This document shows, piece after piece, positions 237-3,339 of a stretch of DNA of 9,170 nucleotides. The stretch lies in IMG/VR virus record IMGVR_UViG_2724679236_000012; one strand, 5' to 3'. The notes under the pieces are model-generated. The model worked only from the letters and a program-made list of their open reading frames with translations. It was not told the origin of the DNA and did no database searches. Each line of letters begins with the position of its first letter. Positions within the stretch are counted from its first letter, which is position 1. The DNA comes from a virus. Taxonomy: Duplodnaviria > Heunggongvirae > Uroviricota > Caudoviricetes. The translations under genes and the position numbers were made by a program.

Positions 237-332
237 AGCCTCACCTCCGCAAATAACGGATGGTGTACACGGTTCGGAACGAAGAGGGAAAGGTATAGAA
301 GTTACATTAGCGTAAGGCTTGAACATCTATTC

Positions 333-364
333 AAAAAGAAAAACGCCAGCGATTATTCTGGCGT
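333..364 (-). terminator. Rho-independent terminator downstream of the AppY-like regulator gene
   Basis: Plus strand has an A-rich tract (333..343), then CGCCAG (344..349), an 8-nt loop, and CTGGCG (358..363). On the minus strand this is a 6-7 bp GC-rich stem followed by TTTTTCTTTTT. It lies about 60 nt past the stop at 421. Confidence 0.6.
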
Positions 365-420
365 AGCTGAAAGCATCATACAATTATCAAATACGAAAAT
401 TACAAAATCATTAAAACGCA

Positions 421-1156
421 TCACGTTACATCATTTCTTTTTCTAAAAAAAAATCTTGATGAATATTGATGGGGAGAAACACCAAAATATCTTCTGAAAA
501 CACTTACAAAATATGACGTGTTTTCATAACCGCATATCTCAGCAACTTTTCCAACAGAATATAAATTGTAGCTTAATAACCTTTCCGCCATCACCATTCG
601 CTCTTCAAGAATTAATTTACTAAATGATAAGCCTTCGTGCTTTAATTTTCTTTTTAACAGACTTTCACTCAGATACAGCCTTGAAGATATATCACAAAGT
701 CTCCATGCTGCAGATATATCCGTGTGAATAATAGCCTTAACTTTACTTCCTAAACTATTAAGACATCCAAATAAAAAACTTTGCACTATTTTCTCTGAAG
801 ATAAGATAGCAAGACATGCAAGTGATATTTGATTTCTAACAACATCCACAGTTCTGCCATCACAATTCAAGCATGCAATCAAGTTCTTTAACAATGAAAA
901 ATCTTCACATTCCACCATCAAGTATGCCGGATAAAACCTTCTTACAGAAAAAGGTGAGAGTGTGTTGCTTTTAAAGAAATCATTAACTGTTTTCTCTTCA
1001 ACATCTACGATCATTACATGATCTATATTTGATAAAAAAATCTTTTAAATTGTAATCAATGAGAACAGCACTTCCTTTTTTAAACAAAATATCTTCTTTA
1101 CCAATTCGGACATCAAACGAGTTCAACACCAAAATGATAGAACATATGTATGGCAT
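421..1156 (-). pseudogene. AraC/XylS-family transcriptional regulator (AppY/EnvY-like), reading frame split by a frameshift in an A7/T7 homopolymer
   Basis: ORF 421..1014 (197 aa) carries a C-terminal AraC-type HTH (…LSESLLKRKLKHEGLSFSKLILEERMVMAERLLSYNLYSVGKVAEICGYENTSYFVSVFRRYFGVSPHQY). A 47-codon ORF in another frame starts at ATG 1156..1154 with SD AGGTGG and reads MPYICSIILVLNSFDVRIGKEDILFKKGSAVLIDYNLKDFF…, resembling the AppY N-terminus as I recall it (MDYVCSVVFICQSFDL…). The two frames overlap around 1000..1044, which includes the A7 run at 1034..1040. Removing one base there gives one continuous ORF of about 250 aa. Very AT-rich gene. Confidence 0.6.
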
Positions 1157-1463
1157 ATTATCCACCTGATATCATTGGGGTTACACCAGGTAAGTATAGG
1201 TGGAAAATCAATATTCGCCAGTTCAACAATAAGGAAAATCTCATTGCATCACAAGTATAAAATCATGTATTTAACTCACAAAAACAAATTATTAAACCAA
1301 TCTGTTATATTATATATAGCTGCGTGGAATCATAATATTATATATTTTGACTGGCATGTTTACCAAATTTAAATTGCATCTCAATGGTTTGTTCAGCGTA
1401 AACAGAGTTTTTATACAAACTGACACTCTGGGTATCATAGTGTAGTTTTTACGATTGTAAATA

Positions 1464-1494
1464 TCCTGCATGCAGGAACTCATCCTTTTGGATG
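1464..1494 (-). terminator. Paired palindromes just downstream of the DUF523/DUF1722 gene stop; possible weak terminator or protein-binding site
   Basis: Perfect 14-bp palindrome TCCTGCATGCAGGA at 1464..1477 and hairpin CATCC-TTTT-GGATG at 1481..1494, immediately after the stop at 1508 on the minus strand. No clean U-tract follows, so terminator function is uncertain. Confidence 0.3.
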
Positions 1495-1507
1495 ATATCG
1501 CATACAA

Positions 1508-2467
1508 TTAATTTACCATCAGTCTTAGAGCCAGTTCGTCCGGATAGGGATCGAAGTAATTCTGTGTAAGCAAGTAATCATTAGGATACTCACCCAAATA
1601 ATGCTTCAGCAGAGTCAACGGCGCAAGAAGAGGCAATGTGCCAGAACGATAGTTAAGTATAACCTCGCTCAACTCTTTACGCTGGCGTGTACTTAAGTAG
1701 TTACTAAAATACCCCTGTATATGCATCAGCACATTCGTGTGATTTTTACGTGATGCAGGTTTTCTGAGAATCGCCATCAGCTTATCACGATACACCTCAA
1801 AGTATGATTCAAGGTCCGCCCACTCGTGTATTGCAGCCACAAATGGCCCCATATCTTTATAGCCTGCCTGACTATGCGCCAACAACTGAAGCTTATAACG
1901 ACTATGAAAAGCTAATAACTCTCTTCTTGATAATTTCTCCTTGTAAAGGTGATTGAGCTCATGCAAAGCAAAAACTCTTTCAACAAAATTCTCACGAAGC
2001 ACTGGATCATGTAATCGCCCATCCTCTTCAACCGGTAGCCAGGAAAACTTTTCCATCAAAGTGCTCGTAAATAGTCCCACTCCATCTTTACGACCTCGAT
2101 TACCATTTTCATCATAGACACGCACGCGCTCCATGCCACAGCTGGGAGATTTAGCACAAACCACAAACCCCGATACATCCTTTAATTTGTCCATATAAGA
2201 ACGACTAAACTCTGTCATTCTCTCTGTCACATCCTCATTCTGGTCGTGGCTGAAACACATCCGTATATTTCCTTGCGTCGAGCGCACAAGACGTAGAGCA
2301 GGACGCGGAACTGGCAGCCCTATAGCCATTTCCGGACATACTGGTCTGAATGTTACCCATTCCACTAATTTGTCCATTAAAAAGTCAGCTCTTTTGTGAC
2401 CACCATCAAAACGAACAGCAGAACCGGCCAAACAACCGCTGATTCCAATCACAGGTTTTTTTATCAT
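1508..2467 (-). CDS. DUF523 (TudS-like Fe-S thiouracil desulfidase fold) / DUF1722 fusion-type protein, 319 aa
   Basis: ATG at 2467 with a GGGGAG SD; 319-aa ORF. N-terminal half has Cys in GISGC (C12), RPVCPE (C44) and CAKSPSCG contexts, consistent with the DUF523 pattern. C-terminal half resembles DUF1722 (YbgA-like). Family assignment is from memory. Confidence 0.7.
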   Translation of the reverse strand: MIKKPVIGISGCLAGSAVRFDGGHKRADFLMDKLVEWVTFRPVCPEMAIGLPVPRPALRLVRSTQGNIRMCFSHDQNEDVTERMTEFSRSYMDKLKDVSGFVVCAKSPSCGMERVRVYDENGNRGRKDGVGLFTSTLMEKFSWLPVEEDGRLHDPVLRENFVERVFALHELNHLYKEKLSRRELLAFHSRYKLQLLAHSQAGYKDMGPFVAAIHEWADLESYFEVYRDKLMAILRKPASRKNHTNVLMHIQGYFSNYLSTRQRKELSEVILNYRSGTLPLLAPLTLLKHYLGEYPNDYLLTQNYFDPYPDELALRLMVN

Positions 2468-2659
2468 ATTCTCCCCCTTGACTAATTCATTAACACATAA
2501 ACTGTGTAGTGCACGGAATAAATTGCCTTTCTGGCGTCATCACTGACAATTTTTCTGTTATGGACTATTCCTAATATAGTATGAAAGTTCTTTTAGTGAT
2601 CGGTCGTAATCATCTATCTTTCATACTTACTCTCAACTATCAAAAGTACAGGATTTATT

Positions 2660-3184
2660 ATGAAGTTATGGCCTGTGTTGACTGGCATTGCGCTCTCTTT
2701 CACTCTTATAGCATGTAAGGCCCCGACACCACCTAAAGGTGTGCAGCCGATTACAAATTTTGACGCCAACCGCTACCTCGGAAAATGGTATGAAATAGCT
2801 CGCCTCGAGAACCGGTTCGAACGTGGTCTGGAACAGGTCAGCGCTACTTATGGAAAACGGAACGACGGAGGGATTCGTGTACTTAACCGTGGATACGATC
2901 CAACGAAAAATAAATGGAGCGAGAGCGAAGGTAAAGCATACTTTACTGGAGATACTAAAACTGCAGCGTTGAAGGTTTCGTTTTTTGGCCCCTTCTATGG
3001 TGGCTATAATGTAATCAAACTGGATGATGAGTATAAGTATGCTCTTGTCAGTGGTCCGAACAGAGAATACCTATGGATTCTGGCAAGGACCCCAACTATT
3101 CCAGATAAAGTAAAAGCAGACTATGTGCGAACCGCTCAAAAGTTGGGATTCAATGTCAATGAATTATTATGGGTTAAACAATAA
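2660..3184 (+). CDS. Blc-family bacterial lipocalin, outer-membrane lipoprotein, 174 aa
   Basis: N-terminal signal peptide with lipobox L-I-A-C (Cys19). Lipocalin motif YLGKWYEIARLENRFERGL and SFFGPFYGGYNVI, YLWILARTP blocks closely parallel E. coli Blc as I recall it. AGGA SD upstream of ATG 2660. It is divergent from chromosomal Blc, so a paralogue. Confidence 0.85.
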   Translation: MKLWPVLTGIALSFTLIACKAPTPPKGVQPITNFDANRYLGKWYEIARLENRFERGLEQVSATYGKRNDGGIRVLNRGYDPTKNKWSESEGKAYFTGDTKTAALKVSFFGPFYGGYNVIKLDDEYKYALVSGPNREYLWILARTPTIPDKVKADYVRTAQKLGFNVNELLWVKQ

Positions 3185-3212
3185 AATCCCTACCCGAAAT
3201 AATACTTATTAG

Positions 3213-3240
3213 AAAAAAACCAGCCTTTGGGGAGACTGGC
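3213..3240 (-). terminator. Rho-independent terminator about 100 nt downstream of the Q gene (tR'-like)
   Basis: Minus strand reads GCCAGTCTCCCCAAAGGCTGG followed by TTTTTTT: a 7-bp stem with one G-U pair, a 6-nt loop, and a 7-U tract (plus-strand A7 at 3213..3219). On the plus strand the stem has an A-C mismatch and no U-tract, so it is mainly a minus-strand terminator. Confidence 0.6.
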
Positions 3241-3339
3241 TAAATCAGGAAACAAGCTGTTATATGACAATAACTACGTTGCGATTCCAACATTTAAAAT
3301 GTTAGACTAATGAGAATCAGACAGCAACTTTTCCTTTAA

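Follow-up and report, generated by a model that had tools for sequence, protein, structure and literature searches.

A probable composite moron cassette of a lipocalin gene, rudS and an AraC-family gene in the Q-to-holin slot of a lambdoid Escherichia coli prophage

The interval between the antiterminator gene Q and the lysis gene S of lambdoid phages is a textbook location for moron cassettes. It holds stx in Stx phages and the nmpC/ompD porin gene in DLP12-like phages, in both cases after pR'/tR' and before the holin gene. RudS is a [4Fe-4S] desulfidase that turns 4-thiouridine (s4U) in tRNA back into uridine (Jamontas et al. 2024, PMC11417400). All RudS variants tested in that study, including RudS_vir (gp66) of Escherichia phage 1H12 as the viral representative, lowered tRNA s4U in E. 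coli, as determined by high-performance liquid chromatography with tandem mass spectrometry (HPLC-MS/MS) (PMC11417400). Over half of the temperate lambda-like phages from E. coli of the infant gut have the lipocalin gene blc, which is counted among their morons (PMC6969025), and PatE, PsrA and PsrB are prophage-borne AraC-family regulators of the GAD acid-resistance regulon and of type III secretion of the host (PMC10877973). Here we analyse a stretch of 9,170 nucleotides (IMG/VR virus record IMGVR_UViG_2724679236_000012, termed the window), in which a Blc-type lipocalin gene, rudS and a split AraC-family gene lie between Q and the holin gene. We consider it likely that the three genes form a composite moron cassette in the Q-to-holin slot of a DLP12/phage-21-like lambdoid prophage, consisting of a captured lipocalin-rudS pair and an added AraC gene.

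A cargo block between Q and the holin gene

The window covers the part of a DLP12/phage-21-like lambdoid E. coli prophage in which late gene expression is regulated, with the late operon on the minus strand (Table 1). From high to low coordinates it contains ybcK/ybcL/ybcM-like genes (8771-5422), ybcN, ybcO, rusA, Q, the cargo interval and the holin gene, and positions 237-3339 are exactly the gap between the Q stop codon and the holin start codon. In the phages PhiR68_2, PhiR34_1 and PhiR70_1 an OmpD/NmpC-type porin gene replaces the block. Since this porin fills the same slot between nearly identical flanks in related phages, the interval is a swappable Q-to-S cargo slot, as the initial annotation of the window had proposed. 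With both flanks identified, a full lambdoid prophage context, isolated phages that carry the block and the porin as an alternative occupant, the location is that of a Q-S moron. Compared to the stx and porin cargo the block consists of other genes, including the lipocalin gene, which is antisense to the late transcript.

Matches to Pfam and NCBIfam models uphold the four domains initially assigned to the cargo proteins, namely lipocalin, DUF523, DUF1722 and the AraC helix-turn-helix (HTH). The AraC gene, which had been described as very AT-rich, indeed has a GC content of only 0.32, compared to about 0.5 for the phage backbone; the value for rudS and the lipocalin gene is 0.44. All three cargo proteins fall into existing PHROG families that lack an assigned function, and a search for defence functions gave 0 PADLOC matches for the three of them.

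Table 1. Features of the cargo interval and its borders (positions in the window; a dot marks features without strand).
Feature	Position	Strand	Remarks
Class II (phage 21/EssD-type) holin gene	21..236	-	PF04971, E=6e-35; first lysis gene and downstream border of the slot; start ATG at 236; counterpart 216-bp gene named essD by the Prokaryotic Genome Annotation Pipeline (PGAP) in matching genomes
Intrinsic terminator hairpin	343..364	-	ACGCCAG...CTGGCGT then TTTTTCTTTTT; just upstream of the holin gene, at the 3' end of the cargo
YdeO/PatE-like AraC-family regulator gene, split	421..1165	-	Open reading frames (ORFs) 998-1165 and 421-1014
AT-rich spacer, GC 0.32	1166..1507	.	Between rudS and the AraC gene
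rudS, TudS(DUF523)-DUF1722 fusion, predicted [4Fe-4S] tRNA 4-thiouridine desulfidase, 319 aa	1508..2467	-	PF04463 and PF08349
Divergent intergenic region, 192 bp	2468..2659	.	Between rudS and the lipocalin gene
Blc-subfamily lipocalin gene, predicted outer-membrane lipoprotein, 174 aa	2660..3184	+	Lipocalin_2 PF08212, E=7e-44, 149.7 bits
tR'-like intrinsic terminator	3218..3241	-	Hairpin and T7, about 100 nt downstream of Q
Antiterminator gene Q	3340..3717	-	PF06530, E=2.5e-51; upstream border of the slot, stop at 3340; 125 aa according to PGAP, longest Q ORF reaches 3732; 378-bp Q-family antiterminator gene annotated at this position in matching genomes

The lipocalin-rudS pair and its chromosomal counterparts

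The rudS product combines an N-terminal TudS/DUF523 domain (PF04463, now named 2-thiouracil desulfurase; E=3e-40, 137.9 bits, cut-off 34.7, residues 7-149) with a C-terminal DUF1722 domain (PF08349; E=2e-40, 138.2 bits, cut-off 22.5, residues 192-309). Moreover, the model of K-12 YbgA matches residues 160-315 with E=1.4e-56, and the TudS structure 6Z92 gives a weak direct match. Most importantly, the protein is 93% identical to RudS_vir (H3V29_gp66 of phage 1H12), 99.7% identical to the IdasGreatGrand protein and 100% identical to alleles in three E. coli chromosomes. It shares with RudS_vir the length of 319 aa, the TudS plus DUF1722 architecture and Cys12, Cys44 and Cys110, which are invariant in the alignment of the two and occupy the same positions as the cluster cysteines of RudS_vir and RudS_ST (Table 1 in PMC11417400). 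Judged by its sequence, the DUF523/DUF1722 protein is RudS, and the lowering of s4U has been shown by others for its 93% ortholog. The initial label 'putative Fe-S enzyme' is outdated, since RudS_vir has been named and tested (PMC11417400). About 7% of the residues differ between the two proteins, which belong to different allelic block types, and the window allele is predicted to have the same activity. The block of 1H12 has the same Q-lipocalin-rudS-AraC-holin order as the window. The RudS study treats rudS alone: phage context, lipocalin neighbour and frequency in E. coli are not discussed there, and the lipocalin is mentioned neither in the paper (PMC11417400) nor in the one supplementary file that was checked as text.

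The lipocalin matches the NCBIfam Blc subfamily model NF007786 over residues 1-174 (316 bits, cut-off 267). Its N-terminus, MKLWPVLTGIALSFTLIAC19K20, contains, as read by eye, the lipobox L-I-A-C19, followed at position +2 by K20, a non-Asp residue that predicts sorting to the outer membrane. Over its whole length the protein can be aligned with the E. coli Blc structures 3mbt, 1qwd and 2aco (E around 1e-68). Thus, E. coli Blc, which is encoded beside ampC (PDB 1QWD, 2ACO, 3MBT), and the window lipocalin have the NCBIfam subfamily, the full-length alignment, the lipobox and the fold signature in common. The window protein differs in that it is phage-borne, linked to rudS and only 64% identical to the mature form of E. 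coli Blc. It is closer to the lipocalins that are linked to rudS in Enterobacter, Leclercia and Citrobacter, with 77-82% identity. K-12 blc is RpoS-dependent, and the work behind 2ACO and 3MBT reportedly found that E. coli Blc binds lysophospholipids or fatty acids.

When one genome per species was scanned, 63 chromosomal rudS loci were recovered in Citrobacter, Enterobacter, Leclercia, Klebsiella, Kluyvera, Pectobacterium, Dickeya and others, with a protein identity of 66-77% and in ordinary chromosomal surroundings. At 42 of them a lipocalin gene lies divergently upstream of rudS, and the encoded lipocalins are 77-82% identical to that of the window, bar a few (two of them: 69% and 72%). A MerR/MlrA-type regulator gene is found between lipocalin and rudS in 39 loci and a transthyretin-like gene in 36, whereas none of the 63 has an AraC homolog. 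In Citrobacter sedlakii the two genes are arranged head to head, 188 bp apart (192 bp in the window), between betT-like transporter and rluF-like genes; there is no adjacent regulator, and the flanking genes are core genes. The Enterobacter cloacae-type lipocalin-MerR-transthyretin-rudS locus, which has been discussed as probably light-inducible (PMC11417400), has the same divergent pair as the window, with a lipocalin that is 77-82% and a RudS that is 70-77% identical. The phage copy lacks the MerR/MlrA and the transthyretin-like genes and so resembles the compact arrangement of C. sedlakii, but it is followed by an AraC gene that was seen at no chromosomal locus.

Since the divergent pair is conserved at 42 of the 63 loci, the phage probably captured lipocalin and rudS together, most probably as a unit from an enterobacterial chromosome. 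Two of the three cargo genes therefore have their counterpart in a pair that is conserved on chromosomes, to which the AraC gene is added in the phage only. The initial annotation had named contiguity of the three genes at non-prophage loci as a finding that would speak against its proposal; such contiguity was found for lipocalin and rudS, but not for all three. Its view that the combination is not a described system holds insofar as none of the searches made found all three genes together outside a prophage, but RudS is a tested enzyme and the lipocalin a published lambda moron.

At loci without lipocalin, rudS lies downstream of a cluster of amine oxidase, DUF1365, cyclopropane-fatty-acid-synthase-like, DUF2878 and DUF3833 genes. 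Examples are Dickeya oryzae (L051, 3179-5361) and Kluyvera georgiana (L008, 1229-2518), and rudS is repeatedly tied to membrane-lipid genes in Enterobacterales. An AAA_21/AbiEii-like ATPase gene directly follows rudS in 36 of the 63 loci (e.g., L029, 7107-8195). Furthermore, a rudS homolog (74%) is found in Salmonella enterica serovar Derby and on a metagenome contig, where it is flanked by ttcA (tRNA 2-thiocytidine synthetase) on one side and by DUF1367, usp, porin and ydbK genes in a row on the other. The site corresponds to that of the Rac prophage and has no lipocalin gene, and this homolog may be a further rudS left in a prophage remnant. The orf242-orf319-orf70 locus of Salmonella pathogenicity island 2 (SPI-2) was expected to hold a lipocalin, but the homolog that was obtained lies elsewhere, namely at the ttcA site.

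Distribution of the block and state of the AraC-family gene

When window positions 366-3215 were used as the query, the cargo was found in 1152 of 5426 complete E. coli genomes (about 21%), in 993 of them with a coverage of at least 80%, and nearly all copies are chromosomal. For rudS the respective number is 1136, with at least 80% of the gene in one place in 1064 genomes, and among 23 rows spread over these 1064 the gene is uninterrupted in 21 and carries the insertion sequence (IS) IS1 in two. The statement that E. coli lacks RudS, made in the RudS paper itself and in a review from 2026 (PMC11417400, PMC13602947), is contradicted by these mostly uninterrupted genes; it is true of K-12 and B strains, but not of about 20% of the sequenced isolates. 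The block occurs as at least three sequence types, which diverge from the window by roughly 1%, 5% and 10%. DLP12-like (ylcG-Q...essD-rrrD) and Qin-like (ydfU-Q...essQ) backbones carry it, as do one complete lambdoid prophage and 12 isolated phages. The AraC gene was detected at an identity of at least 80% in about 1033 E. coli genomes, and since the 996 genomes in which it is covered to at least 80% match the 993 of the block, we conclude that it travels only with the block. Two contigs of a metagenome-assembled genome labelled Candidatus Nanosynbacter sp. (JARKOR010000151.1 and JARKOR010000135.1) have copies of the block that are 94-100% identical from Q to holin; these are almost certainly a binning contaminant.

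Decay of the block is frequent and includes insertions of IS1, IS2 and IS3, IS1-mediated loss of the AraC gene and AraC frameshifts in two other sampled genomes, while the AraC frame is intact in six of seven evenly sampled genomes with a full block. E. coli B strains (BL21, C43(DE3); NZ_CP011938.1, 3001-3864) have an intact lipocalin gene in a Qin-like prophage, but only the first 49 codons of rudS, which is cut by IS3. BL21(DE3) is the host in which the RudS paper measured the loss of s4U (PMC11417400), and because of this truncation there was no functional rudS of its own in the assay host.

These observations bear on whether the cassette is neutral hitch-hiking or decaying DNA that is kept because it lies between two essential late-region elements which recombine as a module. 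The IS insertions and truncations, among them the remnant of 49 rudS codons in B strains, the frameshifted AraC copies and the porin that can fill the same slot are all consistent with such a scenario. It nevertheless appears quite improbable to us, since rudS is uninterrupted in about 90% of the sampled genomes (the 21 of 23 mentioned above), since RudS and the lipocalin are 93-100% identical across block types while the non-coding DNA diverges by up to 10%, and since viable isolated phages, whose genome space is limited, keep the block. In addition, the catalytic cysteines are conserved, and the 93% ortholog is active (PMC11417400).

The C-terminal double HTH of the AraC family was found in ORF 421-1014 (PF12833, HTH_18, 56.6 bits, E=3e-15; PF00165, HTH_AraC, 52.4 bits). 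Phages 1H12 and IdasGreatGrand have intact alleles of 243 aa, whereas the window has no full-length frame, the gene being split into two ORFs, a fact that went unnoticed in the initial annotation. Compared to the intact alleles, the window has lost 2 bp at a homopolymer at 1034-1040 and has one extra base at 445-453. On the plus strand these runs are A7 (1034-1040) and A9 (445-453) in the window and A8 at each site in the intact alleles. E. coli M114 and BA22372 show a 1-bp loss at the first of the two runs. Slippage-prone decay, phase variation or sequencing error could each cause such frameshifts, and unless the homopolymer differences are sequencing errors, the AraC gene of the window reads as a pseudogene.

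Among NCBIfam models the intact allele matches YdeO best (127 bits over residues 1-236), which is under the cut-off of 348, followed by HilD and GadX (86 bits for GadX, cut-off 500). It remains under every equivalog cut-off and represents a related but distinct family, phrog_1450, with homologs in E. coli only. The closest family apart from it is that of a 247-aa AraC protein (52% identity), which is encoded at a prophage end in O157:H7 and by this position is probably PatE. Like PatE, PsrA and PsrB of enterohaemorrhagic E. coli (EHEC) O157:H7 and chromosomal YdeO, the gene is a small (about 245 aa), AT-rich AraC gene, and it shares a prophage location with PatE/Psr. Unlike PatE and Psr, however, it sits in the Q-to-S slot and not beside effector loci, and in the window it is a putative pseudogene. 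By analogy with YdeO, PatE and Psr, the intact alleles probably act on acid-stress genes of the host rather than on the cassette.

The initial annotation had called the AraC protein a dedicated regulator, which leads to the question of whether the three genes are one system, i.e. a phage-delivered stress-response operon in which AraC regulates lipocalin and rudS in place of MerR. The co-distribution of AraC gene and block (996 versus 993 genomes), the co-divergence of the three genes as three block types and the loss from the phage copy of the MerR gene that separates the pair in Enterobacter would fit this idea. We regard it as improbable all the same. The AraC gene is frameshifted in the window and in two other sampled copies, and in other copies it has been removed by IS1 while rudS remains intact. 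It is absent from all 63 chromosomal loci, where the neighbour is of the MerR/MlrA type, and in C. sedlakii the pair does without any adjacent regulator. Moreover, the closest characterised relatives, YdeO and PatE/Psr, regulate acid-resistance and type III secretion genes of the host, and co-distribution is expected of any genes trapped between Q and S. The label of a dedicated regulator is therefore not supported.

Outside the Q-to-holin slot, a second AT-rich cargo block lies inside the nin region (5422-8771, minus strand). It encodes a ybcM-like AraC protein (265 aa), a ybcL-like secreted protein of the PEBP family (183 aa) and a ybcK-like large serine recombinase (508 aa), and its GC content is 0.36-0.42, compared to about 0.51 for the adjoining rusA, ybcO and ybcN. 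Since this ybcM-like gene is present besides the AraC gene of the Q-S slot, the window contains two separate AraC-type cargo genes. An Rfam scan at gathering thresholds and a tRNA scan over the whole window found no RNA genes, and the slot contains neither a tRNA like that of Stx phages nor a known small RNA.

Proposed expression and role of the cassette

A scan for intrinsic terminators recovered, within a few bases, the two minus-strand terminators that had initially been described as bracketing the cargo. Their number alone is no proof, as two matches compare to 2.3 expected in shuffled sequence. We therefore compared five block variants, in which the surrounding DNA differs by up to 10% and contains indels. 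The stem at 364-343 is unchanged in all five despite its diverged flanks. The hairpin and T-run of tR' at 3241-3218 are kept in all five as well, and a single C-to-T change in the stem of the window still allows a G-U pair. Since hairpins and T-runs persist while the surrounding DNA diverges, both terminators are arguably functional.

For promoters the picture is less clear. The spacer at 1166-1507 contains the best two sigma-70-like matches of the scan, both on the minus strand (TTTACA-16-TATGAT at 1461-1434 and TTGGTA-18-TATAAT at 1366-1337, 10/12 each). Because promoter-like sites are not enriched overall (14 found, 11.1 expected from shuffling), such a scan being uninformative in AT-rich DNA, the two are candidates only. 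The divergent intergenic region at 2468-2659 presumably holds both autonomous promoters. A palindrome in this region, ACACA-N5-TGTGT (2493-2507), was considered as a regulatory site and dropped, as it is not conserved even in phage 1H12.

Based on lambda biology, we propose the following course of events. In a lysogen, transcription from pR' would stop at tR', and the cassette would depend on its own promoters, for which 2468-2659 and 1166-1507 are the candidate regions. The lipocalin gene would have to rely on its own promoter in this state because it is antisense to the late transcript. Upon induction, RNA polymerase modified by Q would read through tR' (3241-3218) and through the second terminator, and rudS and the AraC gene would be transcribed directly before the lysis genes, in the manner of stx. 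The [4Fe-4S] cluster of RudS, held by Cys12, Cys44 and Cys110, would return the photosensitive s4U at tRNA position 8 to uridine. According to the RudS literature, lower tRNA s4U8 would result in less near-UV cross-linking of tRNA, less translation arrest and a smaller burst of guanosine tetraphosphate (ppGpp). A lysogen exposed to sunlight or UV might benefit from this, and possibly the yield of phage as well, or late protein synthesis might be kept going when UV induces the prophage. The lipocalin may contribute to the maintenance of envelope lipids.

A bolder and rather unlikely extension is that lipocalin and RudS are two arms of a conserved near-UV/photo-oxidative stress module of Enterobacterales, which lambdoid phages captured, with rudS put into the late transcript, to protect late translation. 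The targets of such a module would be the envelope lipids and s4U8 of tRNA, and a prophage induced by UV or sunlight would erase s4U so that late translation escapes the s4U-dependent growth arrest and the stringent response. That phage RudS is not a tRNA eraser, but mainly salvages or detoxifies free 4-thiouracil or 4-thio-UMP from tRNA turnover during lytic growth, is highly improbable: RudS_vir had the shortest lag on 4-thiouracil among the RudS proteins and a tRNA desulfidation below that expected from its expression (PMC11417400), and stand-alone TudS recycles 4-thio-UMP (PMC10611767), but RudS keeps the tRNA-binding DUF1722 domain (recognised by the YbgA model), RudS_vir did lower tRNA s4U in vivo and no RudS protein supported growth as TudS did (PMC11417400).

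Several observations weigh against a composite cassette built from a jointly captured pair and expressed as proposed above. The nearest chromosomal rudS (77%) and the nearest chromosomal lipocalin gene (82%) belong to different genera. Phage and Citrobacter do not share conserved intergenic DNA either, as an alignment of the phage region with the two Citrobacter loci in which the pair is directly adjacent revealed no conserved block. A scan of genome contigs and a search of 5.8 billion proteins for a donor returned nothing above 77% for RudS outside E. coli, and since no donor was identified, joint capture is not proven. The IS insertions, the truncations in BL21 and C43 and the AraC frameshifts imply that the cassette is often dispensable, at least in parts, and the frameshifts of the window itself could be sequencing errors. 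Although RudS_vir was well expressed, its activity on tRNA was below that of other RudS proteins (PMC11417400), and because of this weaker activity its role in the phage could differ. Finally, both the autonomous promoters and the read-through of the late operon are postulated from lambda biology alone. We nevertheless favour the composite cassette as the likely explanation.

Much of this cassette is made of known parts, and its basic classification, an ordinary moron cassette of known gene families, is unchanged: the Q-to-S moron slot is textbook, the biochemistry of rudS comes from a sister phage, the lipocalin is a listed moron and prophage regulators of the AraC protein's class are known. 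To judge from the literature, what is new is the conserved lipocalin-rudS synteny across Enterobacterales, from which the phage pair is probably derived, the presence of rudS in about 20% of the sequenced E. coli isolates, the orientation of rudS within the late transcript and the status of the AraC gene as a dispensable add-on and not a dedicated regulator. RudS is one of the few known bacterial erasers of a tRNA modification, and in E. coli its gene is always prophage-borne, in the slot from which stx is expressed in Stx phages. The tRNA s4U content and the near-UV responses may therefore vary among E. coli isolates because of a prophage, and the phage may manipulate tRNA modification of its host during lytic growth. 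If the near-UV module should prove to be real, roughly every fifth E. coli strain would owe to a phage a strain-specific tRNA-modification and UVA phenotype, one that the species is at present assumed to be without. The lipocalin-rudS synteny, in turn, is a lead on the physiological role of bacterial lipocalins.

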